64,000 nucleotides of DNA from a virus, in IMG/VR virus record IMGVR_UViG_3300032323_001720, positions 5,902 through 69,901 of that record, one strand, 5' to 3'. How positions within the stretch are numbered: the first letter of the stretch is position 1; each line of letters starts with the position of its first letter. Shown piece after piece: positions 8,902 through 63,046 of this stretch. Made by a program: the position numbers and the translations under genes. The notes below the pieces were generated by a model. It saw only the letters and a list, made by a program, of their open reading frames with translations. It had not been told where the DNA came from and made no database searches.

Positions 8902-9351
8902 ATGGGACTAAGCGTAGCTGAATATTTCGCACAAAAGGAGGCATGTGCCTCCTGTGTGGATCACGGTACCGAAGAACATTGTGTTACCACATTATTGAGT
9001 AGAAAAGAAAATTGTTTTGTTTATAGTATTATACATAACCAAATTGGTGAGTATAAACAAGAAGAGATAGAATTGCTCAGAAAAATGAGGGAAGAATCCT
9101 CAGAAGAAGAGAATGTAATTTATTATGTTAGAGGTGAAAGAATCATCGAAAAGATGCATCTTATGGAGAAACCTTTCTATGAGCAGGTATCTTTTTTTAG
9201 TTATATCAACTTTAAATACATCAAAAGTGTTGTTGAAGCACTAGTTCAGAAACGAACAGAAGATGCAAAACGTCTAATAAATACTATGTTAGAAGTTCTT
9301 GAAAAAGAAAATAACATACCGAAGGAATTAAATGAGTTCAAGTACTATTGA
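8902..9351 (+). CDS. Hypothetical protein, CFI-box-like domain
   Basis: CFVYSII...EIELLRKMRE...YY.RGERII matches the CFIATA...L..LR.FRD...YY..GP.IA pattern by eye. Confidence 0.45.
   Translation: MGLSVAEYFAQKEACASCVDHGTEEHCVTTLLSRKENCFVYSIIHNQIGEYKQEEIELLRKMREESSEEENVIYYVRGERIIEKMHLMEKPFYEQVSFFSYINFKYIKSVVEALVQKRTEDAKRLINTMLEVLEKENNIPKELNEFKYY
9276..9283 (+). promoter_or_regulatory. Late promoter-like box (AATAAATA) upstream of the DUF4815 C-terminal gene
   Basis: About 50 nt upstream of the ATG at 9332, which has an AAGGA RBS. Confidence 0.4.
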
Positions 9352-10987
9352 TCCAGTAGCGCAAACATTTATCATAGATGGTCAAAATTTTCCATCTGGA
9401 GCTTTCTTAAGTTCCGTAAATTTGTTTTTTAGAACAAAGCCAGCGACCAGTATACCGGTTCGTGTTTGCATTTTACCAACTATTAATGGTTATCCAACTG
9501 GCCAGCCTTTGGAATATTCTATCGTTAGTGTGCCAGCCACTTCTGTTAATGTATCTGAAACACCACACTATTTAAATGCGGCCACATATACAAATTTTGC
9601 TTTTTCTTCACCGGTTTATATTAACCCAGATCAGTTATATGCAATAGTTGTACAATCATCTTCTGATGAATATACATTATGGTGTTCACAACAAGGTGAT
9701 AGTGCATTGTTGTCAACATCAAAAGCTCTTCCAACAGACCCAAATCCATCTACACCAACAAAGATTGTTACCACACCATATGTTGGTGACTTGTTTGAAT
9801 CACAGAATGGATTGACTTGGACAGCCGATCTATTAAAAGACTTGATGTTTACAATCAATAGATGTAAGTTTAGTACCAATACATCACCATCAATGTCATT
9901 TGTTGTGCCGGCAGGATTACCAGAAAGAAGAAGAATTGAATCGGATACAGCTCTTGCAACAGCCAATTCTATATACGATGCACTTAACCTATCCACAACA
10001 GACCTAACACCACCAGGAACATCACTTACATATCAGTACACCACAACACTGGCATCTGGTACCGCGGATGGTCCTTACAGTGTGAATCCAGGAAAATACG
10101 GAACACCAAATTCTGAAGATGTTGGTTTAAATGACAACAAAGGTTCAAGAGTATTGAATTATACCGCAAACGATTCGTTCAAATTACAGGTTACTTTATC
10201 TACAGACAATGATGCGGTAAGCCCAGTTATTTCAGAAGACGGATTGAGCCTATGGACAACTCGTTATAGAATCAATAACATGGGTATTTCGAACAGTGAT
10301 ATTTTCTTGATTTCTGGTGGTCGTGGTTACTTGGCCAATGCAAACGGAACAATTTCATATCCACAAATTTCTGTTTCTGCACCGGATTTGGCTGGTGGTG
10401 AACAAGCTTATGTTTCTGCCAACATTTATTTGGGAAATATTGTCAGTGTATATGTCACATCAGAAGGTTCTGGATATTTGACAACACCAACAATTGCCAT
10501 TCCGAATACATCGATTATTGCAGCTAACGTAATTGTTGCGGGTGAAACATCACCTACAGGCGGCAACGGCAGAGCCAGATACATTACACAAACAGTTACA
10601 CTGGCTGAGGGTAGTGATTCTGGTGACCTGAGAGTTTATACAACCGCATACAGACCAACAAATTCTGATATTCATGTATACTACAAGATTGTAGCTAGAG
10701 ATGATACACAGAAAATTGAAGATGGTGATTGGAAACTAATGACAATCACAAGTGGTGCCGGAAGATACTCGACAAGTTTCTCCGATATCGTTGAATATGA
10801 ATTCTCACCAGGCACTTTAAATGTTGCAGATGAATTTGTAAGTTATACTAGCAAAGCAAATGGTCTTTCTTACACATCATTCTACCAGTTTATGATTAAA
10901 GTTGTTATGTCATCTTCGGATTCTACATTCTCACCATTCTTGGAAGACATAAGAGCAATTGCTCTACCACCAGGAACAGGACTATAA
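9332..10987 (+). CDS. Virion structural protein, C-terminal part of a DUF4815/VrlC-like protein
   Basis: Starts DPVAQTF..GAFLSSVNLFF, has LFESQNG.TW..DL.F and ends F.IK.VM...DIRAIAL, the usual C-terminal half of this family. Confidence 0.75.
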   Translation: MSSSTIDPVAQTFIIDGQNFPSGAFLSSVNLFFRTKPATSIPVRVCILPTINGYPTGQPLEYSIVSVPATSVNVSETPHYLNAATYTNFAFSSPVYINPDQLYAIVVQSSSDEYTLWCSQQGDSALLSTSKALPTDPNPSTPTKIVTTPYVGDLFESQNGLTWTADLLKDLMFTINRCKFSTNTSPSMSFVVPAGLPERRRIESDTALATANSIYDALNLSTTDLTPPGTSLTYQYTTTLASGTADGPYSVNPGKYGTPNSEDVGLNDNKGSRVLNYTANDSFKLQVTLSTDNDAVSPVISEDGLSLWTTRYRINNMGISNSDIFLISGGRGYLANANGTISYPQISVSAPDLAGGEQAYVSANIYLGNIVSVYVTSEGSGYLTTPTIAIPNTSIIAANVIVAGETSPTGGNGRARYITQTVTLAEGSDSGDLRVYTTAYRPTNSDIHVYYKIVARDDTQKIEDGDWKLMTITSGAGRYSTSFSDIVEYEFSPGTLNVADEFVSYTSKANGLSYTSFYQFMIKVVMSSSDSTFSPFLEDIRAIALPPGTGL

Positions 10988-11216: not shown

Positions 11217-14200
11217 TACAGTTACATCGTTAAGTTACGCAAACACATTTGGTGAGTGGGTTGTTGCGACTAATAATCTTATTAGAGAGAATAATGATCT
11301 TGCTGCAAATGATTATATCAAGAGCACAGGTACAGTTTATCTTAATGAAACGACACAAAACTCACTCCAGGCGAACGGAACTGTAATTGTACAGAAACAG
11401 TTACTTGTACAAGGTACCGGTTCATCTGCAACAGTACAAAATAATTTAAACGTTGGTAGTCAACTATATCTAACAAATGGTACACTAAGTTTAGTTGCTT
11501 CGGGTCAAGCAAACGTTGCTGGTCAAATTAACGGGCAGGCTTCTGGTATTGGCCTGTTTATTGCAAACAATGCACACATTGGTGGTACCACAGTATCTGC
11601 AATAAGACTCACAACAGGAGTATTGCAGGCAAACTCTTCCGTTAATACATCAAACGCTTCGATTGTAAACACGTTATATACCAAAGATTTACAGGCCAAC
11701 TCAACAATCGTTACGCCAACAATTTCTGTAACGGGTACAACGTTTACTAATGCATTACAAGCTAATGCATTTATGAGCGCACCAACAGCTTCGGTAATTA
11801 ATACTACATTTACCAATCTGTTGCAAGCCAACACTTCTACAAATACAGCGACAGCTTCTGTAACAGGAACAACTTTTACTGATGTATTACAGGCCAATAC
11901 GTCCTCAAATACTGCAACGGCTTCTGTTACTGGTACCACATTTACGAATGTATTACAGGCTAACACTTCTACAAATACAGCGACAGCTTCTGTCACTGGC
12001 ACCACATTCACAAATGTATTGCAAGCCAATACATCTACGAACACAAGATTTTCTTCTGTAACTGGTACAACATTTACTGGTACTTTACAAGCAAATACTT
12101 CTGCATTGGTTGGTACACTACAAGCCAACACATCAGTTAGTGCAGTCTCAATTTCTGCATCAGGAACAACGTTTACTAGTTCTTTACAAGCTAACAATGT
12201 TGCTACCGTAAATTCGCTGGTGGCCAATACAAATGTGGGTGCAGCAACAGTTTCTGCTACCGGTTCAACAACCACAAACATACTGCAAGCCAACACTTCT
12301 GTAAATACGGCGACAGCATCTATTACAGGTACAACATTTACGGATATTTTACAGGCGAATACGACTGCCATTGTAAATTCATTAAGAGCCAATAACGCAG
12401 TAAATACAAACTCGTTACTTGCAAATACTATTACTGTCAATAATATAATTAATGGTAATGCGGCCGCCGGTTATTTTAATAGTTTATCTGTTCAAGGTGG
12501 AGGATTAACAGTTGGTGGCAACTTTGTTATAACTGGTACAACTGTATACACTTCGAATACGTTTATTATTTCTTCAAACGTTTCATCTGCAATTTCCAGT
12601 TATTTTAATGTTGACAGAGGATCTACTGGTGTTGATGCTGCATTCCGTTGGAATGAACCAGCCAAATATTGGGACATGTTGAATGTCACATCAAACACAT
12701 ATTTCCGTGTTCTCACAGATGAATATTTGAATGACACACTAACGTCTACCAGTACAACATCTGTTGCAACTGCAAACGCACTTAACGCATTAAATACACT
12801 TTATAATGCATCAAATACATTCTTGCAAGCTGGTGTTGTTTCTGCTGGTTTGTATGCAAACGGAGCATTCCTAAGAGCTAATGCTGCATACAATTCTCAA
12901 AATACAACTGGCACATACGCAAATAATGCATATGCACAGGCAAATACTGCAACTAATAACGCAGCTGGTGCGTCACTGTATGCTAATGGTGCTTTCATAC
13001 AAGCCAATGCTGCATTCTTGGTGGCAAATACACCAACACATGTAGCCAATTCGGCAGCGTTGTATGCTAATGGTGCATTTGTGCAAGCTAATGCTGGATA
13101 TACACAGGCTAATACTGCAACCAACAATGCAGCGGGTGCTTCATTATACGCCAATGGTGCTTTTAGACAGGCTAATGCTGGTTATACTCAAGCAAATACT
13201 GCAACCAACAATGCGGCTGGTGCTTCTCTATATGCCAATGGTGCTTTCACACAAGCTAATGCTGGATATACTCAAGCCAATACTGCCACAACAAATGCAG
13301 CAACAGCAGACTCTAAAGCTGTTACGGCTGGCTCTTATGCAAACTCGGCGTATGGTCAGGCTAATACCGCCACAACAAATGCATCTGTTGCAACCAACAA
13401 TGCGGCTGGTGCTTCTCTATATGCCAATGGTGCTTTCATACAAGCAAACGCAGCATTCTTAAGAGCCAATACGCCAGATGCAATCGCAAACTCGGCCGCA
13501 TTATATGCCAACGGTGCGTTTGTTCAAGCTAACGCAGCTTTCACGACAGCTAATAGCGCATTGAATGCAAGTAATCTTTCTAGTGGTACTGTTCCTCTTG
13601 CTAGACTGAGTGGTATCACAACGACACAATTGAGTGCTAGTGCTGGTATTACGAATACACAGTTGTCGGCCAGCACAATCTCTGGTGTCTCCTTGGGTGG
13701 AACTTTAGCTTCACACACAGCAGGAACATACTTGGTCGGTGATGCTTACAATGGCAGCACATCAAGAACGTGGTCTGTTGATGCCACCACAACAAACACC
13801 ATAAACAAAATTGCTGCGAGAGATGGTAGTGGTGATATTTACGCAACAGTATTCAGAGGGCTTGCAACCAGTGCCAACTACGCTGACTTGGCAGAAAAGT
13901 ATTTGGCTGATCAAGAATATGAAGTTGGAACAGTTGTTGCTGTTGGTGGTGAAGCAGAAGTTACTGCCGGTTCATATGGTGATAGAGCAATCGGAGTAGT
14001 ATCCGCTCATCCTGCTTATATGATGAACAGTGAACTGGAAGGCGGAACTTACATTGCACTTAAAGGTAGGGTTCCAGTGAAAGTATCTGGCACTGTGCGT
14101 AAAGGACAACGTTTGGTTGCATACAACAATGGTGCGGCTGTTGCAGCAGTACCTCATGCAAATGACGTTTTTGCAATTGCACTAGAATCCAGTGATGATA

Positions 14201-14235
14201 CTGGAGTAAAACTAATTGAAGCTGTGATTTTATAA
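11209..14235 (+). CDS. Tail fibre/spike with repeats and C-terminal intramolecular chaperone (peptidase G2/IMC-like) domain
   Basis: 22-aa Thr-rich repeats, ANNAAGASLYANGAF repeats, C-terminal YADLAEKY...IGVVS..PAY.MN...ALKGRVPVKV motif. Confidence 0.7.
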   Translation: MANTVTSLSYANTFGEWVVATNNLIRENNDLAANDYIKSTGTVYLNETTQNSLQANGTVIVQKQLLVQGTGSSATVQNNLNVGSQLYLTNGTLSLVASGQANVAGQINGQASGIGLFIANNAHIGGTTVSAIRLTTGVLQANSSVNTSNASIVNTLYTKDLQANSTIVTPTISVTGTTFTNALQANAFMSAPTASVINTTFTNLLQANTSTNTATASVTGTTFTDVLQANTSSNTATASVTGTTFTNVLQANTSTNTATASVTGTTFTNVLQANTSTNTRFSSVTGTTFTGTLQANTSALVGTLQANTSVSAVSISASGTTFTSSLQANNVATVNSLVANTNVGAATVSATGSTTTNILQANTSVNTATASITGTTFTDILQANTTAIVNSLRANNAVNTNSLLANTITVNNIINGNAAAGYFNSLSVQGGGLTVGGNFVITGTTVYTSNTFIISSNVSSAISSYFNVDRGSTGVDAAFRWNEPAKYWDMLNVTSNTYFRVLTDEYLNDTLTSTSTTSVATANALNALNTLYNASNTFLQAGVVSAGLYANGAFLRANAAYNSQNTTGTYANNAYAQANTATNNAAGASLYANGAFIQANAAFLVANTPTHVANSAALYANGAFVQANAGYTQANTATNNAAGASLYANGAFRQANAGYTQANTATNNAAGASLYANGAFTQANAGYTQANTATTNAATADSKAVTAGSYANSAYGQANTATTNASVATNNAAGASLYANGAFIQANAAFLRANTPDAIANSAALYANGAFVQANAAFTTANSALNASNLSSGTVPLARLSGITTTQLSASAGITNTQLSASTISGVSLGGTLASHTAGTYLVGDAYNGSTSRTWSVDATTTNTINKIAARDGSGDIYATVFRGLATSANYADLAEKYLADQEYEVGTVVAVGGEAEVTAGSYGDRAIGVVSAHPAYMMNSELEGGTYIALKGRVPVKVSGTVRKGQRLVAYNNGAAVAAVPHANDVFAIALESSDDTGVKLIEAVIL

Positions 14236-14317: not shown

Positions 14318-14842
14318 ATGATGACACTAGATGAGTTTGAAAACTTCCTGTACACAGATTTGGTATACGAACAGAAAATAATATCTGTTATCGATGACCA
14401 ATCTAGACAAATATTAATTGATGGTATACATCAGTTACACCAATACCCAAACTGTACCATAAAACTGGAACAGATGGAAAAATACAATGAAAGTATTTTC
14501 CAAAAGTGTCAAGAGTTGAAGGCAAAATATTCACATCCAGGTCCAATGACTTGTCACGCATTCCTTGCATTCAAAGGTTCTAAAAGTTTTGGTTTGCATA
14601 CTGATCCAGACAATGTTATAATAGAATGTATTTTTGGTTCAAAGACATTATACGTTGATACCAAAAATGATAGAAAACATGTGCTCAAACAAGGCGAATA
14701 TATATTCATACCAGCCAACACAGAACACGAAATCGTTAATGAAGAGAAGTCATTGATATTGAGTTTTGGATTTGAAAAATTTTACGTTGAAAAGATAAAT
14801 TATGGACTTAATGTTCTATTTGAAAACGACAGAAACTTGTAA
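14318..14842 (+). CDS. JmjC/cupin-like Fe(II) oxygenase
   Basis: SFGLHTD (HxD), GSKT and L..GEYIFIP....H, the cupin-4/JmjC layout. Confidence 0.7.
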   Translation: MMTLDEFENFLYTDLVYEQKIISVIDDQSRQILIDGIHQLHQYPNCTIKLEQMEKYNESIFQKCQELKAKYSHPGPMTCHAFLAFKGSKSFGLHTDPDNVIIECIFGSKTLYVDTKNDRKHVLKQGEYIFIPANTEHEIVNEEKSLILSFGFEKFYVEKINYGLNVLFENDRNL

Positions 14843-15857
14843 CTTAAATTGTTTACATTGTTTCACTAGTGGTTCCAAAGGTGCAAAGATATATTGGAAT
14901 CATGTCAAAGTCGCTGATTGGTTACGTAAAATGTCTGTGGAAACTCAATATGCACCACATGTTCATTTTGAATTTCATGGTGGCGAACCATTTCTTGCAG
15001 ACATTTCTTCACTACAATACGTTTACGACAACTGCCAGAACTTGTGGAAAAGCCAAAGTTGGGGTATCACAACCAATCTGGCTTTCAAACTAGACCAAGA
15101 AAAAATAGACTTCATTATGGGTCCATTGGGTGGCAGAGTCGGTACCAGTTGGGATCCAGATATTCGTTTTGCAAATCCCAAACAGTATGATCTTTGGAGA
15201 AAGAATGTGCAAACACTGATTGATATGGGTGTCGTTGTGAAACTGTTTATCAGCGTAACTAAAGGCACGATTGCAATTGAACCTATCGAACTGCTTGAGT
15301 GGGTAAAGTCACTCGGTGTCAAAGAACTGGCACTGGAACGACTGACTATGAATGGTAGTGCTAAGCAGAACTTACAAATCTTTCCTTCCAATATCGAACA
15401 GGACCAGTGGTTTCTGAAGATGCACCATCAGAGTGAAGAACATGATGCGAGAAGTTGGTTTGATAATGAATTTCTGGAAACGGTGTATAATAAATTCGAA
15501 ACGGGTTTCACCGCAGGCGGAACGTTTTGTAGAGATTGTGAAGAGAAATTATTCACCGTAAATGCAGACGGTACCGTATCTGGTTGTCCCAATTCTGCGC
15601 CAGAATTTCAGTTTGGCACTATAAATGATGATATAAAAAGCCTTATAAATAGTCCAATCAGAACAGAAAACATTGCTTGTGAAAGGTCTAGGGATCCTAG
15701 ATGTTATTCGTGTGATGTATTTGAATATTGTGGTGGAGATTGTCATCAACTTGAATGGGAAAATGATGTGTGTGGTGCACCAAAAAGCTTGATGAGATTC
15801 TTAAAAAGTAATCAAAAAAGAAAAGTATGGATATTAAAAGATGGCAACATTAACTAA
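14802..15857 (+). CDS. Radical SAM protein with SPASM-like domain (rSAM-1)
   Basis: CNLNCLHC, FHGGEP and C-terminal CRDC..GC...CYSC.....CGGDC...C. Confidence 0.9.
   Translation: MDLMFYLKTTETCNLNCLHCFTSGSKGAKIYWNHVKVADWLRKMSVETQYAPHVHFEFHGGEPFLADISSLQYVYDNCQNLWKSQSWGITTNLAFKLDQEKIDFIMGPLGGRVGTSWDPDIRFANPKQYDLWRKNVQTLIDMGVVVKLFISVTKGTIAIEPIELLEWVKSLGVKELALERLTMNGSAKQNLQIFPSNIEQDQWFLKMHHQSEEHDARSWFDNEFLETVYNKFETGFTAGGTFCRDCEEKLFTVNADGTVSGCPNSAPEFQFGTINDDIKSLINSPIRTENIACERSRDPRCYSCDVFEYCGGDCHQLEWENDVCGAPKSLMRFLKSNQKRKVWILKDGNIN
15644..15651 (+). promoter_or_regulatory. Perfect T4 late promoter consensus TATAAATA inside rSAM-1, upstream of the putative substrate gene
   Basis: Exact match about 190 nt upstream of the ATG at 15841; a chance match is possible in AT-rich DNA. 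Confidence 0.4.
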
Positions 15858-16407
15858 CCCTATAAGAACACAAAACATCGTTGATAGATTTGCGGATTAC
15901 GTAACTGCAACATCAGCTACGAGTATCGTATGGGGCACAAATGCGAAACCATTTGCTGAAATGCCCGATTCAACTTTCGGTGGTACAACCAGTGGAAGAG
16001 CAATAGGTATAAATGGAGGAAGTATAGGTTCAGGTGTAATAACCGCAGCAAATATTTACAATACTCTCGTTAATGAAACTGCAGCATATACATCAATAAG
16101 AAATTTAAGAGCAATTTTGTTTGTTGATGGCGGCGGTGGAAATACAGGATCCAGAACAACTCCAGGTATCATTTATGACCAAACAGCTGTTGCATATTTA
16201 AATACCAGTTATTTACAAAGTGTTGGAACTCCATCTAATGCTGGAGTTGCTTCAGGAAATGTTGCGTCAGCAGGAAATTTGGAATCATTTTTCAATAATT
16301 TAAGAACTTCCTATAATACCGCAAGATCAAGTACCGCAACAGTTCAAGTTAATGTTTGTCATGCTTCGTGTCATAGTTCATGCCACGGTTCACGTTCTAG
16401 GAGATAA
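15841..16407 (+). CDS. Putative radical SAM substrate / RiPP-like precursor protein with C-terminal (CHxS)3-RSRR motif
   Basis: Thr/Ser/Gly/Ala/Asn-rich body; all 3 Cys and all 3 His fall in the terminal CHASCHSSCHGSRSRR; overlaps the rSAM-1 stop. Confidence 0.65.
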   Translation: MATLTNPIRTQNIVDRFADYVTATSATSIVWGTNAKPFAEMPDSTFGGTTSGRAIGINGGSIGSGVITAANIYNTLVNETAAYTSIRNLRAILFVDGGGGNTGSRTTPGIIYDQTAVAYLNTSYLQSVGTPSNAGVASGNVASAGNLESFFNNLRTSYNTARSSTATVQVNVCHASCHSSCHGSRSRR

Positions 16408-16409
16408 TA

Positions 16410-17126
16410 ATGAATATCGTTGAAACAACTGCACCAATATCTATTGATAATTTAAAAAAATATTTTGCTGACAAAACAACTTTTTTTGTTATCAATTATA
16501 AAGAAAGTACATTAAAAGGTACAAAATTGTTGACGTATATATCAAACTTGGATATACCGTGCGATATCTCTTTTAAAGACTGTTCAAATGAAGAATGTTT
16601 TGACATGATTAAAGATTATTTGAATACATCCATGATTGTTAATGTATCTTCTTTGGAAAATTCTGTTATTGCAATTCTTCATCAAGCAAAGGAGTTAGCT
16701 CCATTAGTGGATAAAGAATTTATTGAAAGCAACAAAGAAATTATAGATAAATGGGTATCAAAATTGGAAAGTTTGACTCTTTATAATATGCATATCATTA
16801 AAGAGGATGCATTCAAAGAGTTTGTTGATAGTTTTCCAGTTGATGAAACAAAAGAAATGACTGGTGTCAATTTCATAAGTCTCTTGAAACATCACAATTT
16901 TTATTCATTCTTTCAGAACACAAATCAAAATAATTTAAAATTTTATTCACACTATTTTAATGAATATGTTTTTAAAGGTAAGAATTTATTCTCTTACTGG
17001 GCTAATGAAAACAATCCTTTATTTTTACTGACGTACAGTATCGCTGAAGGACTGTTTAAAGAAAATGAATACGTTGAAATGAAAAATAAAACTATTCAGG
17101 AGTTTAAAGATGTTTCATCTGTTTAA
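16410..17126 (+). CDS. Hypothetical protein of the radical SAM island
   Basis: 238-aa ORF tightly coupled to its neighbours; no recognisable motif. Confidence 0.7.
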   Translation: MNIVETTAPISIDNLKKYFADKTTFFVINYKESTLKGTKLLTYISNLDIPCDISFKDCSNEECFDMIKDYLNTSMIVNVSSLENSVIAILHQAKELAPLVDKEFIESNKEIIDKWVSKLESLTLYNMHIIKEDAFKEFVDSFPVDETKEMTGVNFISLLKHHNFYSFFQNTNQNNLKFYSHYFNEYVFKGKNLFSYWANENNPLFLLTYSIAEGLFKENEYVEMKNKTIQEFKDVSSV

Positions 17127-18147
17127 TAAAGTTTATGTCGTTTCAGATAGTTTGATTGACATAAACTATGATAGAGTAGTACTATCAAAGAGATATGGAA
17201 TCAAAATGTATGAACAACTCGACAACGTTTCACAGGGTGAGTTGTTAATGTATGCAGATGGTTTCGCAAGTCTCGGAAAGTCTTTCGATGTTTTCATAAA
17301 AGAACTGAACGATCATATTACAAAAACAAACAAAAGAATTGCTGTTTATGTTGATGACAATTCTTTCATGGAATTGATTAGTAATTGGTTGTTCAGAATG
17401 TTTAAAAACATGGACGCAAACACCGCATGGTTTGTTGTTGATTTATATCTAAAGAAATCAAAGAAACACCAATCTTGGAGAAGCAATCATTCTTCTTTAC
17501 AGGTGGAAATATACAAAGATGTTAATGAAACCGATTTCAAGAAGATTTTCAATGGTCTTGCAGTTGATAAAATTGACACAGTATATTCCACAATTAAAGA
17601 ACAGATAAGCGTGGAATTTTTAATTGCATCATACAAACATGACGGTTCAAATCTAACACCATTGATTTCTTCTTTGGAAAAATTGTTAACAAGATCATTT
17701 CAGGAAATTTTGTTGGAAATAAAACACACTGTATATAAAAATCAACACAAATCCAACTTCAACATTTCATTTGACGAAACTTTTTTTAGTAATTCAACTC
17801 TTTATAAATCAGAATTTCTCGGAAAAGTTGGCAGTGCAAGTAACGTTGATATCACAAATTCATCCGCAGATGATGTTAAGAAGTTTAAAGACATAGCCAA
17901 ACAAGTCTATATTAATTGGGATAAATTCTCCGAGAATTCTCCTATCTTCAATAAACTAGACTGGTTCGATCTGCTTCGTGGTGGTTTAACGAAGGAAGAA
18001 GTTGATAAAATTTTACAAATGGAAAAAGAAGATACTTCCAATATCAGAATGTATTCATCTCACGATGAAGAATTAATCAATATTTACTTACTAGATCATA
18101 TACTAAATCAAAATTCGGAGCAATTGAAATCATATCAACTTAGATAA
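17110..18147 (+). CDS. Hypothetical protein of the radical SAM island
   Basis: 345-aa ORF with AGGAG RBS, overlapping the upstream gene; no recognisable motif. Confidence 0.7.
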   Translation: MFHLFNKVYVVSDSLIDINYDRVVLSKRYGIKMYEQLDNVSQGELLMYADGFASLGKSFDVFIKELNDHITKTNKRIAVYVDDNSFMELISNWLFRMFKNMDANTAWFVVDLYLKKSKKHQSWRSNHSSLQVEIYKDVNETDFKKIFNGLAVDKIDTVYSTIKEQISVEFLIASYKHDGSNLTPLISSLEKLLTRSFQEILLEIKHTVYKNQHKSNFNISFDETFFSNSTLYKSEFLGKVGSASNVDITNSSADDVKKFKDIAKQVYINWDKFSENSPIFNKLDWFDLLRGGLTKEEVDKILQMEKEDTSNIRMYSSHDEELINIYLLDHILNQNSEQLKSYQLR

Positions 18148-18158
18148 ATCAATGAATT

Positions 18159-18797
18159 ATGAATCATGTGAATCACAACAATTACTATGATTTAGGTTTT
18201 TTTCGAACGAATGTACCTGATGATATTTTAAAATTACTTTGGTCGGAAGTTTATCTGACAGAATGGATAAATGATTCTGAAGAGGGTATTTACAAACAAA
18301 TACCCTCTTGGTACAAAAAGAAAAACAAATATGCATTGAAGAAAGATGGTTCGAATAGATCCGAATATGAACGTCTGATCGGAAAAGAAATTTTCGAAAA
18401 GACTCCAAGTACACTGATAGAAATTGGCAATAAGCTTATACAGAATGAACAATTTGATTTTTTCAGAACGTACTACAAATCACACGAATTAAAATACATC
18501 GATCTCTGGAATGGTTCAGAGAGTATTGATTACCATTTCGATACAATAAATGGATGTGACACATTCATTCTGATTTACCTTACAGACTCCGAAAAATGGT
18601 CAAGTGAGTGGGGTGGTTCTATAACCATGAAGAAACAGGTCGGCAGTCTTTGTCACTATGAACAAAAAATTCTTCCTGATAATGCAACCATGTTGGTTGT
18701 AAACAATGCAAATCCACTTGTCATGCATAAGGTGGAAAAACTCCACAACACATCAATAAATAGATACACCTTCTCTTTTATTTACAAGTGGTTTTAA
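18159..18797 (+). CDS. 2OG-Fe(II) oxygenase (prolyl-hydroxylase-like)
   Basis: YHFD (HxD), LIYL...W..EWGG, distal HKV and RYT motifs. Confidence 0.8.
   Translation: MNHVNHNNYYDLGFFRTNVPDDILKLLWSEVYLTEWINDSEEGIYKQIPSWYKKKNKYALKKDGSNRSEYERLIGKEIFEKTPSTLIEIGNKLIQNEQFDFFRTYYKSHELKYIDLWNGSESIDYHFDTINGCDTFILIYLTDSEKWSSEWGGSITMKKQVGSLCHYEQKILPDNATMLVVNNANPLVMHKVEKLHNTSINRYTFSFIYKWF
18755..18762 (+). promoter_or_regulatory. Late promoter-like box (AATAAATA)
   Basis: About 37 nt upstream of the rSAM-2 start codon. Confidence 0.3.
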
Positions 18798-18798
18798 A

Positions 18799-19803
18799 TT
18801 GATAGCTGAACATGTATTGAATATACACAATAAAAGGCCAGATACTGGTGAAATTATTGTAACACTGTTTGAATATTGTGATTTGAGTTGTTTATTCTGC
18901 AACCAAGACCACGATAGCTATGAGGGTATCGATACAATAGTCGGTAAATTTGACTCAGTTAAATTATCAATCGACCAACAAATAAAAAAAGGCAAAAAAC
19001 AAATCTCCATACACATGATGGGTGGAGAATTATTCTCGGATACAGTAGAAGATAAAGTATTCGATGACTACGCCGAACTCACCAAGAAATTACTGGCATA
19101 CGGCAAAGAAATAAACATACCTCTAGAAGTTTCTTTTATTACCAACTTTGTATGGGAAAAGAAACAAAGAATAAAGAAATTTCTGGATGATAACGACATA
19201 TCGGTTATGACCAGTTATGACCCGTCAGGTAGATTCAACAAAAAAACTTTTGAAGTCTACAAAAAAAACATACAAGATTTCAAAGAATATATAATCAGTG
19301 TCAACGTCATTATGACGAAGCCAAATATAGATAAGTTCATGTCGGACAATGTACCGTTTTTCGATTACTTGTATGAAAACTTCCCAATCTATTTTGATTA
19401 TTATGGACCAGGAAAAAACCATGAATTTCTAATGGCAAAAGACGTTGAGATTCGTGACTTTATGAAATACATGTTTGAGAACTGGAACAATTGTCATCCG
19501 TTCAAAACATTTACTAATAAAACCGCAAACAAAATGTCATGTATGGATACGCATACTGTTATGCCATCCGGAAAATGGGGTGGTTGTGGTTACTTTGAGA
19601 ATTTAGAGAAAGTTATACCAATTAAACTTGTAACCGAACAAAAATGGTTTGATGATTACAATTGTTATGAATGTGAACATCTACAAAGATGCACTATGGG
19701 ATGTTTTATGAGTAATCATGTTAAAGATATGAGAACACAAAATGAATGTTGGTTAAAAGAAGTTTATGATTATGTTGATTTAGAAATTGAAAAGGAGAAA
19801 TGA
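18799..19803 (+). CDS. Radical SAM protein with Cys-rich C-terminus (rSAM-2)
   Basis: CDLSCLFC, MGGE and C-terminal C...GC...CYEC.....C..GC...C; TTG start. Confidence 0.85.
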   Translation: MIAEHVLNIHNKRPDTGEIIVTLFEYCDLSCLFCNQDHDSYEGIDTIVGKFDSVKLSIDQQIKKGKKQISIHMMGGELFSDTVEDKVFDDYAELTKKLLAYGKEINIPLEVSFITNFVWEKKQRIKKFLDDNDISVMTSYDPSGRFNKKTFEVYKKNIQDFKEYIISVNVIMTKPNIDKFMSDNVPFFDYLYENFPIYFDYYGPGKNHEFLMAKDVEIRDFMKYMFENWNNCHPFKTFTNKTANKMSCMDTHTVMPSGKWGGCGYFENLEKVIPIKLVTEQKWFDDYNCYECEHLQRCTMGCFMSNHVKDMRTQNECWLKEVYDYVDLEIEKEK

Positions 19804-19804
19804 A

Positions 19805-20905
19805 ATGATTGTACCATTAATTGAATCGAATAAAGATTTTATTGCTGCCGAAGCGGTTGATTTTGTTCGTAGAACTTATCCAGATTTCAAGTTCGATAAC
19901 GAACTTCTTCGCAGAGATGTGCATATGGTCATCGATATCTTTATGGGTGAGTTGCATATCAAAGGCGGCGTTTATTCTTATGACATTGAGGATGGTCGTG
20001 ACATTTCATCTTTTCAATTAAATAGATATATAAAGTCATTCATTGTATTCAGAAATCATTCTGAACAAACAATTAATTGTATTCAATACACTGCTGATTT
20101 AATAAAAAAAGTTATAACAAACCAGAAAGTGGAACCTGTTTATAACACACACTACCAACAATCATACAACAATGAACAAGAATTTGATAAAGAAAAATTG
20201 AATGAATTCGATACCATTTGCAGTTTAATTATTGCAAATTCCGATTCAGGTTCAAACAGAAACTATCACATCGATTTCATTGAAGAATATTTCGACAAGG
20301 GTTTCATAGTTACGAAAATTCCACCACATATACATGAAAAATTGTGGCAAGAAGTTAAAAACACCAAATGGATTGATGCCGAAAAAACAACATATAAAAA
20401 AATACCAGATTGGTATCACGAAAATGAAAAGCATTATGTTGATCCAACAGGTTTCGATAGACCTTCTTATGAAAGAAAAATTGCAGCCGATATTTTTACA
20501 AATGCACCAAAGAGTTTGATTGATATTTCGGATGAATTAATACGGGATCCATTGTTTGATCCATTACGAATGTATCGTCCACCAAATCCTGTCACAAAGT
20601 TTTTACATTTTTGGAATGGAAGTGAAAATTCACCACACCATGTTGATGCCATTGATGGTTCTGATCTTATGGTGTTTTGCTATCTCACTGAGGCAGAAGA
20701 TTGGAAAGAAGAATGGGGTGGATATATCAACATCTTGAAAGAAGTTAATTCTGAAATTACAAACACTAAAATTGTATTGCCAAATAACGGAGTAATGGTA
20801 TTAGTTAACAACTCCGCACCAATTTTTAAACATGGTATCAGAAATTTAGTTAAAAAAGATGTTAATAGATATACATACATCTTTCATTACACTTGGACAT
20901 ACTGA
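19805..20905 (+). CDS. 2OG-Fe(II) oxygenase with N-terminal extension
   Basis: HHVD, EEWGG, FKHGI and NRYT motifs; C-terminal half paralogous to 18159-18797. The ATG at 19805 follows an AAGGAG RBS. Confidence 0.8.
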   Translation: MIVPLIESNKDFIAAEAVDFVRRTYPDFKFDNELLRRDVHMVIDIFMGELHIKGGVYSYDIEDGRDISSFQLNRYIKSFIVFRNHSEQTINCIQYTADLIKKVITNQKVEPVYNTHYQQSYNNEQEFDKEKLNEFDTICSLIIANSDSGSNRNYHIDFIEEYFDKGFIVTKIPPHIHEKLWQEVKNTKWIDAEKTTYKKIPDWYHENEKHYVDPTGFDRPSYERKIAADIFTNAPKSLIDISDELIRDPLFDPLRMYRPPNPVTKFLHFWNGSENSPHHVDAIDGSDLMVFCYLTEAEDWKEEWGGYINILKEVNSEITNTKIVLPNNGVMVLVNNSAPIFKHGIRNLVKKDVNRYTYIFHYTWTY

Positions 20906-20920
20906 ATCTAAATTTTTGTT

Positions 20921-21991
20921 ATGGAATTAATTATTAAACCAACTGAGAAGTGCAACTTCAAGTGTACCTTTTGTTCAAGTACGCACATCACCGATGATAA
21001 GACAGCGGAGTTGGATCACGAATATATCTTTAAGTTTTTAAAAAGATATCCAGAAACAAACACCATCATTGTTAATGGTGGTGATCCACTAATGATGAGC
21101 CCAGAATATTACTGGAAAATAATTGAACACCTGGAAGAAATTGGTAGTGATGCTCGCATATCATTTACCAGTAATCTATGGCCATTCTATAAGAATCCTA
21201 AAAAATGGACCGAATTGTTTACGCATCCTCGCATGGGTATTACAACCAGTTTCCAGTATGGTGGTGGAAGACTTAAAGGTGACTTGACAGAATTCAGTGA
21301 AGAAGACTTCTGGAACGTCAGTGATATGATGTTGGACGTTGTTGGTTATCGCCCAGACTTCATAAGTGTTATCACTAAGGAGAATGAACATCTGGCCATC
21401 AAGAACGTTGAACTGGCAAAAAAGATGGATGTGGAATGTAAATTGAACTATGCTTTCAGTAGTGGACCTCCGGTAAAATTTAAAAACATTATCATGGGAC
21501 AACAAGGGCAACCATATTTACTAGCAGATATGTACAAAATATATGTTGAAATATGGAAGAGAAATTTGACACAGTGGGAATATAACACAAAACAGATGGT
21601 CAAGAGACTGGTTGGCCATGCAACCACTTGCCCACAAAATAGAAACTGTGATGCAAACATCCGAACATTACAACCAAGTGGTGATTATTATAGTTGCGGT
21701 GCATTTGGTGATGATAAACTTTATCAAATAAATTTTGAAAAAGAAATGTCAGGTGAAAAGATATTTCCTCTCAGATTTCAACCGGAATTACAGAGTCTTA
21801 AAGGTTCCTGTTTCACCTGCCCAATGTTTCAAATCTGTAATGGTTGCAAGAAAACAATCAAAGATTTAAAAGACCATGACTTGGTAGAAGAACACTGTTC
21901 TAAAATGAAACTGTTGGCACCAGATATCATTGAGTCAAATGGAATGACAGGTATTCTGGAACCTACACCGTATGTTAGAGAATACGCATGA
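20921..21991 (+). CDS. Radical SAM protein with SPASM-like domain (rSAM-3)
   Basis: CNFKCTFC, NGGDP and CP....C...SCG...CFTC.....C.GC...C. Confidence 0.9.
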   Translation: MELIIKPTEKCNFKCTFCSSTHITDDKTAELDHEYIFKFLKRYPETNTIIVNGGDPLMMSPEYYWKIIEHLEEIGSDARISFTSNLWPFYKNPKKWTELFTHPRMGITTSFQYGGGRLKGDLTEFSEEDFWNVSDMMLDVVGYRPDFISVITKENEHLAIKNVELAKKMDVECKLNYAFSSGPPVKFKNIIMGQQGQPYLLADMYKIYVEIWKRNLTQWEYNTKQMVKRLVGHATTCPQNRNCDANIRTLQPSGDYYSCGAFGDDKLYQINFEKEMSGEKIFPLRFQPELQSLKGSCFTCPMFQICNGCKKTIKDLKDHDLVEEHCSKMKLLAPDIIESNGMTGILEPTPYVREYA

Positions 21992-22896
21992 ACGTTTCTA
22001 TTAATCCCAGTTACTTCTGCAATTTTCGATGTGACTTTTGTTATCTAACGGAAGAACAACTGTCCGACCAGAAGAAAATAGAACTAGAAAAACTTGACGA
22101 ATTATTATCACAGGTACCCAACATCGAACATATAGATTTGTATGGTGGTGAAATTGGCGCATTGAAAAAAGATTATTTCTATGGTTTGAGAGATACAATT
22201 CGCAAACATTATGGTGGTAAAATCAATATTAATACCAATTATTCCATGTTGCACGATGGTTTCTATGAGGATGATTTTTACCTGAGTGTCAGTTATGATT
22301 GGGAAGCCAGAGAAAAGTCCGATAGAGTTTACCAGAACATGTTGATGAGTCCAGTACCCATAGCCGTACTGGTCCTGGCCAGTCCTAAAGTACTGGAGAT
22401 GAATGTTGATGAACTGATCATGTCCATGAACTTGTGCAGTAGTGTAAAAAGCCTGGAGATAAAACCTTACAGTACCAACCAGGCGAACCAACATCCTGTC
22501 ACACACAAAGACTTTGAGGAATTTGTTAAAAAGTGGGTTGAAAGTCCAGTAAAAAAGAACTTTGAATTCATTAATGAATATTATATTGAAGATGTTTTGG
22601 ATGGTAACCGAAATGCGTTCAGTGATGATCACATCTATATCACACCAAATGGCAAGTTTGCTGTATTAGAATTCGATCTAAACGACAATGAATATTTCCT
22701 GGAACTGGATAGTTGGGATGACTATGTGAAATGGACACAAAAAGAAAAACGAAGTAACGTTAGTGACATTTGTAAAAGTTGTGAATTCTATGGCAAATGT
22801 CTGACAGAACACTACCGTTATGTGAAGGATCTAAATAATAGTTGCAATGGTTATAAATTTTTAATAGAGTGGTATCGTGAACGACTGGAAAATTAG
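21988..22896 (+). CDS. Radical SAM protein (rSAM-4)
   Basis: CNFRCDFC, YGGE and C-terminal CKSC.....C...H...C; ATGA overlap with rSAM-3. Confidence 0.85.
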   Translation: MNVSINPSYFCNFRCDFCYLTEEQLSDQKKIELEKLDELLSQVPNIEHIDLYGGEIGALKKDYFYGLRDTIRKHYGGKININTNYSMLHDGFYEDDFYLSVSYDWEAREKSDRVYQNMLMSPVPIAVLVLASPKVLEMNVDELIMSMNLCSSVKSLEIKPYSTNQANQHPVTHKDFEEFVKKWVESPVKKNFEFINEYYIEDVLDGNRNAFSDDHIYITPNGKFAVLEFDLNDNEYFLELDSWDDYVKWTQKEKRSNVSDICKSCEFYGKCLTEHYRYVKDLNNSCNGYKFLIEWYRERLEN

Positions 22897-23275
22897 ACAA
22901 GAAATTTATCATAGACTTAATACCGATTTTGATGATGATTTAAAAACTAAATCGGTTGAAATGTCGGATGATATTGTGGGTAATGCTGTTCGTTATTTCA
23001 ATGAACGCGATATCGGATGGATCTATCCAGCCAAAAGTTACATGGTTGGAATATGTTATGCACGTTGGCTATCCGAACATTTTGGTGGAGAACCATTAGA
23101 TTATCTCAAAGATCAGAGTTTATTATATCACAATGATCCATATTTTAATAATTATGAACTTGATCAAAAAACATACGATGAAATATTAAGTAAAATCAAT
23201 CATTGGAATTTTGAGGAAAAAAATGGTTTGGTTCCTGATGTGAAAAAATATTTCACAGAAGAGTTTATGTTATGA
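22877..23275 (+). CDS. Hypothetical protein of the radical SAM island
   Basis: 132-aa ORF with GTG start, overlapping both neighbours. Confidence 0.65.
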   Translation: MNDWKIRQEIYHRLNTDFDDDLKTKSVEMSDDIVGNAVRYFNERDIGWIYPAKSYMVGICYARWLSEHFGGEPLDYLKDQSLLYHNDPYFNNYELDQKTYDEILSKINHWNFEEKNGLVPDVKKYFTEEFML

Positions 23276-23844
23276 TTCAAAATTTGTGGCCAACACCACT
23301 ACTAAAAACAAATTTTTCGGAAGAAATAAGAAATGATTTATTGAGTCATTTTTTAACAAAATATGACTTTTTAAATTCTTCCGGCGATCTCAGTAATGTA
23401 AACATTTTTGACGATGAATCGGATATTATCTATAAGTTTACTGATGAGGTTGTGTTACCACTTTTTGATACCTTTCTGAAAGAGAGTTTGGGGAAAGGTA
23501 TGTTAAGTTGGAAAAGTTATAAACTAAAAGGTTGGCTGACTGGATCAGGAAAAAACTACGCCTCAAATTTACACAACCATAAGGGCGCAGTAATCTCTTC
23601 AGTATTTTATTTGCTTTGTGAAGAAGTGGATGTTGGTGGTGAAATTTACTTCACCGACCCCAGACAAAATTCAAATAGAGGATATGATAATCAATTCTCC
23701 AAATGGTTTGATCATCTTTCTTTAACACCAAAAAGTGGTGATGTTGTGATTTTTCCAAGCTTTTTATATCATTATGTTGCAACTTATAGAGGAAACATCA
23801 GAATAGCCATGCCTGTTGATTTGTTTCTCTATACGAACGAGTGA
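23272..23844 (+). CDS. Putative 2OG-Fe(II) oxygenase (TIGR02466-like phage family)
   Basis: LWPTP start, HNH..A.ISSVFY, FTDPR and P..GDVVIFPSFLYH.V....R motifs. Confidence 0.8.
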   Translation: MIQNLWPTPLLKTNFSEEIRNDLLSHFLTKYDFLNSSGDLSNVNIFDDESDIIYKFTDEVVLPLFDTFLKESLGKGMLSWKSYKLKGWLTGSGKNYASNLHNHKGAVISSVFYLLCEEVDVGGEIYFTDPRQNSNRGYDNQFSKWFDHLSLTPKSGDVVIFPSFLYHYVATYRGNIRIAMPVDLFLYTNE

Positions 23845-58724: not shown

Positions 58725-59264
58725 ATGAACAAACAGAAACACTACATCAATAATGAAGATTTCCTAAAGGCATTAGTCGCATACAAAGAGCTATGCATAG
58801 AGTCTGAAAAGAATGGTAAACCGAAACCCAACATACCAAATTATATTGGTGAATGTTGGATGAAAATTGCCGAAGGACTCTCACACAAACCAAACTTTAT
58901 CAACTATACTTACCGAGATGAAATGATTTCGGATGGCATTGAAAACTGTCTGATGTATTTTGAGAACTTTGATCCAAACAAATCCAAAAATCCGTTCGCA
59001 TACTTCACTCAGATCATTTACTATGCATTCCTTAGGAGAATTCAAAAGGAAAAGAAACAACTGTATGTGAAGTACAAATCTACCGAACAGATTGGTATTC
59101 TGGATGAATTTGAAACCATGGAGTTTGAAGATGGTACAACTAAACAGTTTGAACTGTATGACAACATTGCCGAGTTTATTGAGAACTACGAAGTTGCCAA
59201 AAAAAGCAAAAAAGAAATGAAGTTGGTAAAGAAGCCCAAAGGCGTTGAAAAATTTATGGAGTGA
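58725..59264 (+). CDS. gp55: Late transcription sigma factor gp55
   Basis: HY.NN..F, YIGEC..KIA..LS..PNF.NY and NPFAYFTQI.Y.AF.RRI.KEK motifs. Confidence 0.96.
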   Translation: MNKQKHYINNEDFLKALVAYKELCIESEKNGKPKPNIPNYIGECWMKIAEGLSHKPNFINYTYRDEMISDGIENCLMYFENFDPNKSKNPFAYFTQIIYYAFLRRIQKEKKQLYVKYKSTEQIGILDEFETMEFEDGTTKQFELYDNIAEFIENYEVAKKSKKEMKLVKKPKGVEKFME

Positions 59265-59671
59265 TTATGAAAGTAGGATTTACATGTTCATGTTTCGATC
59301 TGTTTCATGCAGGTCATGTAATGATGTTGAGAGAAGCAAAAACTCAATGTGACTATTTAATTGTGGGGTTACAAACTGATCCAACAATTGATAGAAATTG
59401 GAAAAATAAACCCGTTCAATCGGTATTGGAAAGATTCATTCAGTTAGATGCTTGCAAATACGTGGATCAAATTGTACCATATGCCACAGAAAAAGAACTG
59501 AAGGATATATTGACTTCTTATCCAATTGATGTTAGAATCATTGGAGAAGAGTATCGTGATAAACAATTTACTGGTCACGATCTACCAATGCAAGTCTATT
59601 TTAATAGTAGACAACATAGTTTTTCAACAACCGAATTGCGGCAGCGAGTAACAGAATCCACAAGTAAATGA
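59261..59671 (+). CDS. Cytidylyltransferase (glycerol-3-phosphate cytidylyltransferase / TagD-like)
   Basis: FDLFHAGH (HxGH), LIVGLQTDP, KPVQS..ER and R.H.FSTT motifs. Confidence 0.85.
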   Translation: MIMKVGFTCSCFDLFHAGHVMMLREAKTQCDYLIVGLQTDPTIDRNWKNKPVQSVLERFIQLDACKYVDQIVPYATEKELKDILTSYPIDVRIIGEEYRDKQFTGHDLPMQVYFNSRQHSFSTTELRQRVTESTSK

Positions 59672-62456: not shown

Positions 62457-63046
62457 ATACTGATGAAGTTGTATTATACGATACACAAGAACAAAGTAAG
62501 GTTGCGTCAACCGCACCAATCTTTAAACTTGCTCCTCCTGACTGGCCAACTCTTTATCAAGTTTTGCCAGAGTTTAACTTTAAGAAACCACCCGTCAATC
62601 CGGCAGAGTTTGCTTCTTCTTTGGTAGAAACGTGTAAAGCAAATAATGGATTAGGTCTTTCTGCCAATCAGTGTGGTTTTCCACACCGGGTTTTTGTCAT
62701 GGGTACCGGCGAAGAATATGTTGCGTTCTTTAATCCAGAATTAATCTCGACAGAGGGAGAAGTTCACATGGATGAGGGTTGCCTTTCTTTTCCAATGTTG
62801 ACACTAAAGGTAACAAGACCTAAAACAATTCAGGTAAAATATCAAGACTTCAAAGGTGAAACACATACCAAAACTTTTGAGGGATTAACCGCCAGATGTT
62901 TCCTGCATGAACTTGACCACATGAACGGAATAGTGTATACTGATAGGACTAAACCTCTTGCACTTCAACTTGGTTTGAAAAAACTGAGTAAGTTAAACAA
63001 GAAGATGCTTAAGTTCCAAAAGTTTAATCTATCAAAAAAGAAATAA
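62453..63046 (+). CDS. def: Peptide deformylase
   Basis: GLSANQ, EGCLS and HELDH, the three PDF motifs. Confidence 0.93.
   Translation: MNTDEVVLYDTQEQSKVASTAPIFKLAPPDWPTLYQVLPEFNFKKPPVNPAEFASSLVETCKANNGLGLSANQCGFPHRVFVMGTGEEYVAFFNPELISTEGEVHMDEGCLSFPMLTLKVTRPKTIQVKYQDFKGETHTKTFEGLTARCFLHELDHMNGIVYTDRTKPLALQLGLKKLSKLNKKMLKFQKFNLSKKK

Follow-up and report, generated by a model that had tools for sequence, protein, structure and literature searches.

A phage gene kit of radical SAM enzymes and oxygenases and its candidate substrate, a protein with a Cys-His-x-Ser tail

Why would a phage keep four radical S-adenosylmethionine (rSAM) enzymes and four iron oxygenases among its tail-fibre genes, and on what do they act? 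The question is raised by a stretch of 64,000 nucleotides of IMG/VR virus record IMGVR_UViG_3300032323_001720 (positions 5,902 to 69,901 of this 69.9-kb record; hereafter the window), annotated as the baseplate-fibre-neck-head region of a T4-like myovirus. Within it, twelve overlapping or abutting open reading frames (ORFs), g1 to g12, occupy positions 14318-23844, all on the + strand (Table 1). They encode four rSAM enzymes (g2, g7, g9 and g10, referred to as A to D), one JmjC-type cupin, three 2-oxoglutarate (2OG) oxygenases, three unknowns (g4, g5 and g11) and a 188-residue protein, g3, which ends in V-CHAS-CHSS-CHGS-RSRR-stop. The gene order and the enzyme count given in an earlier note, made from the letters of this DNA, were borne out by the ORF list and by Pfam, NCBIfam and PHROGs, as was the position of the block, with a long fibre gene on one side and an LtfC-like gene followed by fibre-like genes on the other. 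The answer that we favour, while keeping real reservations, is that several enzymes acting in line introduce cross-links and hydroxyl groups into the tail of a virion protein which caps the tip of a fibre.

The candidate substrate and the enzymes that travel with it

The family of g3 is large (860 clusters of homologues, 321 at 50% clustering) and mean column conservation is 0.83 in the tail vs 0.43 in the body. Near the end, 118 of the 120 closest homologues have the pattern CH..CH..CH, as do 140 of the best 150 among the distant ones; x-S-R-x-R-R-stop usually follows it. At 777 places in 259 of 270 proteins, the residue three positions after the tail Cys (i+3) was Ser in 707 cases, Asn in 49, Ala in 16 and another residue in 5. 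In the AlphaFold2 (AF2) model, the body has a predicted local distance difference test score (pLDDT) of 89 and consists of three helices, a beta-hairpin and a C-terminal strand, while the tail has low pLDDT, from which we take it to be a free end. No match to this fold was found in the PDB with Foldseek at E 0.001, the best VIA score was Z 3.6, a profile search gave nothing useful, and the matches in BFVD were uncharacterised phage proteins only. A tblastn search with g3 gave no match in cultured phages, the homologues of which were reached via rSAM C, g4 and fold search. In relative P0151, the g3 domain is fused to a glycine-rich N-terminal region. On sequence grounds, the tail of g3 is very probably modified.

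Do the enzymes depend on this protein being present? Loci in IMG/VR anchored on the substrate keep the gene order of the window (31 loci). In the reverse direction, 49 of 52 loci anchored on rSAM C contain a tail ORF, counting loci with at least 9.9 kb upstream (28 shorter loci were excluded). Of the three exceptions, two have a cassette that heads for the edge of the available sequence or extends beyond it. Among cultured phages, all 15 records with rSAM C also carry g4. The enzymes are thus rarely found apart from the CHxS protein; the earlier note had named the opposite outcome as one that would tell against its proposal. Gene presence was then counted in 43 distinct viral loci with room on both sides and in 15 bacterial loci. 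Genes g2, g3, g4, g7, g9, g10 and g11 are each present in 40-43 of the 43 viral loci (g2 in 42, g7 and g10 in 41, g11 in 40). Gene g4, nearly always situated directly behind g3, is present in 42/43 viral and 15/15 bacterial loci, g11 is found in 14 of the 15 bacterial loci, and g5 in 36 viral and 12 bacterial ones. The oxygenases vary more, with g1 in 34, g12 in 35, and g6 or g8 in 19 of the 43 viral loci. The kit therefore consists of core genes and a changing complement of oxygenases, to which further rSAM and B12-rSAM genes are often added.

The kit is not confined to metagenomic viruses. Its cultured carriers are phiKZ-like Ralstonia, Burkholderia and Pseudomonas phages, Atu_ph07 and Phosso. 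A scan of 185,579 prokaryote genomes with the tail pattern returned 32 loci, of which 20 are labelled Bdellovibrionota; one of the 32 is a chance match and another gave no tail ORF. Several Bdellovibrionota loci lie on megabase contigs amid housekeeping genes, and these chromosomes hold the same gene set with order and strand shuffled. Five loci labelled Marinovum, Rickettsiales, archaeon, Dysosmobacter and Flavobacteriaceae (L035, L036, L063, L049 and L056) appear from their gene content to be phage or mis-binned contigs, and these labels were given no weight. A distant rSAM C occurs in 136 plasmid records. In pQBR57, the one plasmid examined, six rSAM genes stand behind two prepilins and surround an exported 124-residue protein ending in CHTA-CHGA-CHGA-CHGS-RGWR; none of g4, g5, g11 or the oxygenases was detected among the 16 pQBR57 genes scanned.

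The tail itself varies in eight loci (L049, L050, L055, L100, L119, L137, L113 and L147), with extra CHxS repeats, a Gly-rich end replacing RxRR, or loss of the third Cys; among the tail-variant loci a degenerate tail, ..ICHSNCY..RSRR, was found beside rSAM genes. Such variants are natural material for assigning enzymes to links. Seven loci (L042, L048, L061, L087, L135, L034 and L040) carry two tandem substrate paralogues each, those of phages being only 125-140 residues long and abutting a giant fibre with a Peptidase_G2 (G2) end.

All four rSAM enzymes contain CxxxCxxC and match PF04055 and phrog_1802 (E 9e-64, 9e-42, 5e-61 and 2e-34), and CxxxCxxC near the N-terminus is kept in 99-100% of the 73-82 relatives of each. 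Kept auxiliary Cys residues number 8 in A, 7 in B and 8 in C, as in SPASM-type enzymes, while D has only 4 Cys and 2 invariant His. The earlier note had proposed two rSAM-SPASM enzymes; its choice of g2 (above the TIGR04085/PF13186 cut-offs) and g9 (just below them) stands, and the count rises to three. With seven auxiliary Cys, B would have space for an open iron site. In the oxygenases, the metal triads do not vary among relatives. The four rSAM enzymes are only 21-30% alike in pairs and are therefore old, distinct clades. Every one of them scores far below all curated family cut-offs, and the best-scoring models describe peptide or protein maturases: PapB for A and B (50 of 340 bits for A), and DynA (48 of 450 bits) and the anaerobic sulfatase maturase (anSME) for C. 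A clustering with cofactor- or nucleotide-modifying rSAM families, which the earlier note had asked about, was not what these best models showed. Together with the two-way co-occurrence, they support its proposal of a dedicated machinery for a phage protein rather than for an exported peptide. Also in line with it, no transporter or peptidase model (Pfam, NCBIfam) and no Pfam model of a PqqD-like recognition element (RRE) matched any of the 12 proteins.

The three unknowns gave few clues to their roles. The AF2 model of g4 has no fold match above Z 5, and neither an RRE nor a known enzyme was recognised in it; g4 is possibly a substrate-presenting partner. For g5, Pfam, NCBIfam and PHROGs gave no family and its best profile match in the PDB (E 0.008) was weak and left unused, as was that of g11 (E 0.24), for which the PDB held no relative.

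Late promoter, particle association and the neighbouring fibre

If g3 is a structural protein, it should be made late and be found in particles. Exact T4-type late promoter boxes, TATAAATA, occur twice in the window: one lies 197 bases before g3 and the other precedes the scaffold/capsid genes. For 26 of 27 distinct relatives, a late box stands no more than 300 bases before the substrate gene; among the other cassette genes that are well sampled, the figure is 0-5 of 20-26. The -197 box overlaps conserved L-I-N-S codons of rSAM A; in 13 loci, the box stands at other positions. The GC content at third codon positions (GC3) of g3, 0.185, is the lowest of the 56 window genes tabulated. Sigma-70 promoters and terminators were not found above chance level.

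Publications cited here by accession are drawn on for their available parts, and our statements refer to those parts. In phage Atu_ph07, with genes numbered by counting back from gp180 and confirmed by three exact masses, we assign the g3 homologue to gp170 (mass match 31.89 kDa). The particle proteome of this phage lists gp170 with 8 peptides (coverage 35%) and with its highest abundance in band 1, the top gel band, while gp164-169, 171 and 172, kit enzymes included, are absent from that table (PMC6102473 Table S5). Of the 25 rows of 28-37 kDa examined in it, only 3 peak in band 1 (PMC6102473). The presence of gp170 in band 1 indicates association and an SDS-stable or disulfide-linked complex, and not an enzymatic link. 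With a late promoter before g3 and its homologue in particles, g3 is in all likelihood a particle protein in the phage of the window. Of the two roles offered by the earlier note, the modified tip thus gains support, while the host-directed effector sits poorly with late promoter and particle proteome.

The upstream fibre ends in a G2-type intramolecular chaperone. PF11962 matches 26 of 37 aligned relatives of this end, the D-x-x-E residues D60 and E63 are invariant in all 37 rows, and there are weak PDB matches to the Dpo31 chaperone D4 and to phi29 gp12. By analogy to the phi29 gp12 cut site, we take the fibre to be cut at ...SANYA/DLAEKY (slash, cut), leaving ...ATSANYA as the mature end. 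In 23 of 50 distinct viral loci the substrate has a G2-ended fibre no more than 3.5 kb away, and in 4 the two abut; in 9 more of the 50 the upstream fibre ends in WxxVWPxxW. The G2 fibre of Atu_ph07, gp176 (66 kDa), peaks in band 4 together with 50-55 kDa proteins (Table S5, PMC6102473), a position matching the predicted 52.5 kDa cut form within a loose relation of band to mass.

What stands behind such fibres when the kit is missing? In kit-less PA5oct it is another particle protein, and in kit-less phiKZ-like phages a different small gene, which fits g3 being one of several alternative caps. PA5oct gp360 (L159:7453-8673), which comes directly after the G2 fibre, resembles g3 in its two initial G/N-x-x-I-x-A-x-x-x-N helices, with a profile score that is not significant; it is a possible alternative cap. 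Among 15 proteins behind fibres of kit-less phages, none was a significant tail-less g3 homologue (best full E 0.23). In phages 2050HW and LPKP23, the small ORFs that follow the fibres (L161:6682-7209 and L162:7614-8144) begin with three GGxW repeats, a motif that cassette-bearing relatives carry once, at the C-terminus of the fibre.

Bacterial cassettes contain a G2-like protein of about 200 residues with the motif RHWVKVK, in which VWNAVWN/D stands at the place matching the cut. Its assignment rests mainly on Atlas (0.95 to the PF11962 cluster) and on a phi29 alignment (E 0.23); compared directly with the end of the phage fibre, it gives a weak profile match (probability 9-40%, E 3e-4 to 2e-3), and a Pfam scan of single members gave no match. 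Across 251 genomes of the phylum, g4 is present in 10, the G2-like protein in 13 and both in 9 (naive p 7e-13, not tree-corrected), the two lying at most 14 kb apart in 8 of these 9. Fibres with an S74 chaperone are found in 8 of 20 bacterial loci. An S74 gene lies within 20 kb of the cassette in 4 of 5 genomes holding 1-4 S74 genes each, where chance is 1-5% each, three of those genomes having been known to have S74 nearby when chosen. The link to fibres thus persists in three kinds of replicon: phages, bacterial chromosomes and, with pilins, a plasmid.

A proposed mechanism and its rivals

How could these elements work together? In the mechanism that we propose, g3 would be made late in infection from its own late promoter and then fold, leaving its free 16-residue end as the substrate of the kit. 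With the help of g4, g5 and g11, the four core rSAM enzymes would introduce links of several kinds into the three Cys-His-x-Ser repeats, the likeliest being three-residue rings from His to a C-beta on H-x-S/N/A (triceptide-type) and/or Cys thioethers. The JmjC and 2OG enzymes would add hydroxyls to His, Arg or Asn as a variable decoration. Matured g3 would enter the particle and most likely cap the neighbouring trimeric fibre, docking on its tip after the chaperone has removed itself, in the manner of gp38 with gp37 in T2/S16-like phages, presenting a rigid, cationic, Cys/His-rich end to the host surface. C-beta abstraction is favoured over use of the Ser hydroxyl because Ala and Asn are tolerated at i+3, and this spectrum fits the His-x-X C-beta chemistry of HAA, HTK and HNR motifs. 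We hold the evidence to be evenly balanced as to whether g3 sits on the fibre tip; the bond types proposed could equally prove right or wrong, and a role in adhesion is neither favoured nor disfavoured.

Several observations weigh against this reading. Locus L142 is a real partial case, with g1, g2 and g9 and no tail ORF nearby. In 13 of the 50 viral loci neither fibre type is found in the available sequence, and in 5 more the G2 fibre is further off. The kit is missing from 26 of the 29 cultured-phage records that have G2 fibres of this type, and in four of the 13 genomes with the bacterial G2-like protein (L143-L146) no cassette or S74 gene lies within 10 kb. WxxVW is a general element of fibre tips, as three copies start the gene behind the fibre in kit-less 2050HW and LPKP23. 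The pQBR57 tail has mostly Ala at i+3, on a body unrelated to g3. A separate strong promoter for g3 suggests more copies than one per fibre. The Atu_ph07 particles were purified with polyethylene glycol only, in a buffer that, as written, held no reductant (PMC6102473), and band 1 may for this reason contain disulfide aggregates. Finally, the loci are related by descent and the locus sets partly share contigs, so that the counts above are not independent and speak for linkage only.

Could the tail instead be a covalent staple, tying g3 subunits to one another or to the fibre through the links or through oxidised Cys, as in a collar, whisker or filament? Atu_ph07 does bear hair-like whiskers (PMC6102473). 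The band-1 peak of gp170 (31.9 kDa), the sole one of the three such rows with more than 2 peptides, the promoter of its own that g3 possesses, and the loci with two paralogues or longer repeat tails all point the same way. Non-reducing conditions would account for band 1 equally well, and the peak of gp176 at the size of a monomer means that most fibre chains are free of covalent ties. In addition, rSAM enzymes are cytoplasmic and oxygen-sensitive and usually act within one chain. We consider a staple unlikely. Still less probable, in our view, is a true RiPP (a peptide made on the ribosome and modified after translation), the 16-residue tail being modified, cut off and put to use as a small molecule or intracellular effector, and the body serving as a long leader or carrier. 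Such an effector might act against superinfecting DNA, by analogy with DNA-binding HxsA (PMC13128918); the core is at the C-terminus, the best hidden Markov models are RiPP maturases, and pQBR57 has the same tail on an unrelated exported body. Against this, the 12 genes include no peptidase or transporter, a homologue is present in particles, the fibre linkage persists in three kinds of replicon, and the body of g3 folds confidently, has conserved core residues and occurs fused to, or lengthened by, fibre-like domains.

A further possibility, to which we assign little weight, is that the tail is an unmodified metal site (3 Cys and 3 His, or haem on CxxxCH) and that the enzymes act elsewhere in the tail module, for example on the fibre or on glycans. 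The invariance of Cys and His would suit metal ligation, a GT8-like or B12-rSAM gene is present in addition in several bacterial loci, and 2OG genes are common in hypervariable phage regions (phrog_81). Positions that are not ligands (Ser at i+3, RxRR and the exact end) are near-invariant too, however, tail and rSAM enzymes stay together while body, fibre type and gene order change, and no haem-attachment genes were seen in the annotation of the window. That the block is an auxiliary metabolic or nucleotide/cofactor-modifying island unlinked to g3 we regard as very improbable. Papers do list its genes as accessory or as 'arylsulfatase/SAM', and C and D have weak matches to viperin, MoaA and heme d1 models, but these are weak N-terminal CxxxCxxC matches far below cut-off, and the two-way co-occurrence with g3, above all the reverse test, largely refutes such an island.

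Returning to a modified tail on a fibre cap, one extension of it is offered as speculation that we think more apt to fail than to hold. The kit might build a portable, ribosomally encoded polycyclic grip, i.e. fused His/Cys rings ending in RxRR and possibly metal-loaded, for display on the fibre tips of phages and predators and on the tips of plasmid pili, where it would bind one conserved Gram-negative surface target. Darobactin-type rings bind BamA, and siderophores bind their transporters. A grip of this kind would explain the invariant tail across T4-like and phiKZ-like phages, Bdellovibrionota and megaplasmids despite the changing body and fibre, and would amount to a natural-product-like receptor ligand worn on a virion. 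Should the proposed mechanism be correct, post-translational modification of virions would gain a new class, and viruses, predatory bacteria and conjugative megaplasmids would share a host-contact structure of a new kind; one 16-residue tag would be served by four or more rSAM clades and three protein families, all of them new. The mechanism would also give a testable function to a long-noticed rSAM cluster of Ralstonia/Burkholderia jumbo phages and of pQBR and IncP-2-type plasmids, and the cultured carriers Atu_ph07 and Phosso as well as pQBR57 make the system directly testable.

As to the block itself, the earlier note had called it AT-rich. Its GC content is indeed lower (0.337 vs 0.390/0.399 in the flanks), an effect of codon position 2 because the flanks are Ala/Gly/Thr/Ser-rich fibres; with GC3 equal inside and outside (0.303 and 0.289), a foreign island is not supported. 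Elsewhere in the window, a large phrog_358 virion protein is split in two ORFs (3832-8898 and 9332-10987), the first ending in a Gly run and a helical segment, 'CCVISTA...', with a 149-residue ORF of similar Cys-led start between them (8902-9351). These Cys-led segments may resemble CFI-box C-terminal domains; they had no NCBIfam match. A peptide deformylase above the TIGR00079 cut-off (62453-63046) and a HldE/TagD-type cytidylyl/adenylyltransferase (59261-59671) are also encoded.

Table 1. Positions in the window of the twelve genes, the upstream fibre and the elements discussed
Feature	Position	Strand	Evidence or remark
Long tail fibre, 1008 aa	11209..14235	+	PHROG tail-fibre matches; probable partner of modified protein
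Peptidase_G2 intramolecular chaperone, fibre residues 893-1008	13885..14235	+	PF11962 27.4 bits, cut-off 25
g1, JmjC-type cupin oxygenase	14318..14842	+	Cupin_2/JmjC_2 above cut-off; H94/D96/H137 invariant
g2, rSAM-SPASM A, 8 auxiliary Cys	14802..15857	+	TIGR04085 and PF13186 above cut-off
T4-type late promoter box TATAAATA inside g2	15644..15651	+	Exact box, 197 bases upstream of g3
g3, candidate substrate, 188 aa, folded body and tail	15841..16407	+	AF2; 860 homologues; Atu_ph07 homologue in particle proteome
g3 tail CHAS-CHSS-CHGS-RSRR, residues 173-188, predicted modification site	16357..16404	+	Conservation; low pLDDT
g4, core unknown, 238 aa	16410..17126	+	phrog_20767; AF2 pLDDT 92
g5, core unknown, 345 aa, MxHLFNKVY start	17110..18147	+	No family match; sometimes 2-3 paralogues
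g6, accessory 2OG-Fe(II) oxygenase	18159..18797	+	2OG-Fe(II) model match; H126/D128/H190
g7, rSAM-SPASM B	18799..19803	+	rSAM models; 7 invariant auxiliary Cys
g8, accessory 2OG oxygenase, extra N-terminal domain of ~165 aa	19787..20905	+	2OG-Fe(II) model; 40% identical to g6
g9, rSAM-SPASM C, best-conserved enzyme, 8 auxiliary Cys	20921..21991	+	DynA, anSME best models
g10, rSAM D, short C-terminal cluster region	21988..22896	+	rSAM models; 4 Cys and 2 His invariant
g11, core unknown, 132 aa, YPAKSY motif	22877..23275	+	phrog_20737
g12, 2OG-Fe(II) oxygenase	23272..23844	+	PF13759 / phrog_81 type

Relation to known systems

Has such a system been described before? The earlier note knew of no characterised phage system with this layout, and we likewise found no functional account in the literature searched, only passing annotations, although most subscription journals lay outside the search and an account there could be missed. 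No account of rSAM enzymes maturing a virion protein was found in the same literature. Papers on carriers list kit genes, in the parts available, only as accessory or unknown (PMC8066314, PMC11898562, PMC4989453, bioRxiv 10.64898/2026.03.27.714766). PMC12801897 concerns an unrelated rSAM enzyme. On pQBR57 and pQBR103, an 'arylsulfatase/SAM region' beside the type IV pilus cluster is reported as conserved and of unknown function, with no substrate named in the available text (PMC4989453, bioRxiv 10.64898/2026.03.27.714766); it resembles the kit in its related rSAM enzymes and Cys-His-tailed protein.

On the side of the fibre, the nearest parallel is gp37/gp38, where a trimeric fibre with a self-cleaving chaperone is likewise followed by a small protein proposed for the exposed tip; in T2/S16-like phages, release of the chaperone exposes the docking site for gp38 (PMC7917993). 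Here the chaperone is of G2 instead of S74 type, and gp38 needs no modifying enzymes (PMC7917993). Between g3 and gp38 there was no listed sequence-profile or fold match (best Z 3.6), and g3 has no long polyglycine motifs and no polyglycine sandwich. The MAT fibres of Bdellovibrio are S74-chaperoned, phage-like adhesive trimers, and the bacterial kit adjoins S74 fibres; the available text of the paper does not mention 'radical SAM' (PMC10769870). The neighbours of the bacterial kit differ from MAT fibres in their pilin-type N-termini and separate G2-like protein.

On the side of the chemistry, a classical RiPP cluster would have a peptidase, an exporter and a short precursor, whereas neither a peptidase nor an exporter is seen among the 12 genes and the substrate is a folded 188-residue protein. 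SCIFF has CxxS repeats. The kit shares CxxxC periodicity with PapB, SCIFF/CteB, QhpD and CrpC/CrpA, and it differs from ranthipeptide systems in that no RRE was found by Pfam, the acceptor would be Ser/Asn/Ala instead of Asp/Glu, and the system is viral and multi-enzyme. The ranthipeptide and sactipeptide models score far too low (PapB 50 of 340 bits, SCIFF maturase 24 of 425), and g3 matches no precursor model. CrpC installs rSAM thioethers on a folded protein, CrpA (PMC13692751). Triceptide synthases (HaaB, HtkB and YhhB) are rSAM-SPASM enzymes whose targets hold two or three copies of a His-X2-X3 motif, X3 being Ala, Asn-type or another residue, and His-x-X C-beta chemistry is known from the motifs HAA, HTK and HNR (PMC11499958). 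Three H-x-S/N/A motifs in g3 agree with the aromatic-X2-X3 pattern. Triceptides differ in their short precursors and released peptides (PMC11499958), against a Cys before each His and a 188-residue substrate here, and the 3-CyFE maturase models (AmcB, FxsB, YhhB and GrrM) score below 30 bits against cut-offs of 310-445.

The closest likeness in overall design is to HXS, in which several rSAM enzymes and a small partner mature His-x-Ser repeats that adjoin basic residues on a folded extracytoplasmic protein, and the matured repeats bind DNA (PMC13128918). Membership is not supported: the HXS models (TIGR03977/03978) give 36.1 of 370 bits for HxsB and 28.7 of 267.9 for HxsC, and g3, g4 and g11 have no NCBIfam or Pfam match at E 0.1 to HxsA (peptidoglycan-binding domain, five HxS repeats) or HxsD. 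HXS is an anti-phage host defence with two rSAM enzymes and a periplasmic effector that has a peptidoglycan-binding domain and N-terminal repeats (PMC13128918), whereas the kit is virus-encoded, has C-terminal Cys-His-x-Ser repeats and combines four or more rSAM enzymes of other clades with oxygenases. The system is real, widespread and undescribed in the literature searched; its presumed chemistry is of known kinds, rSAM cross-linking and 2OG hydroxylation, but the system itself lies outside HXS and every RiPP class tested.

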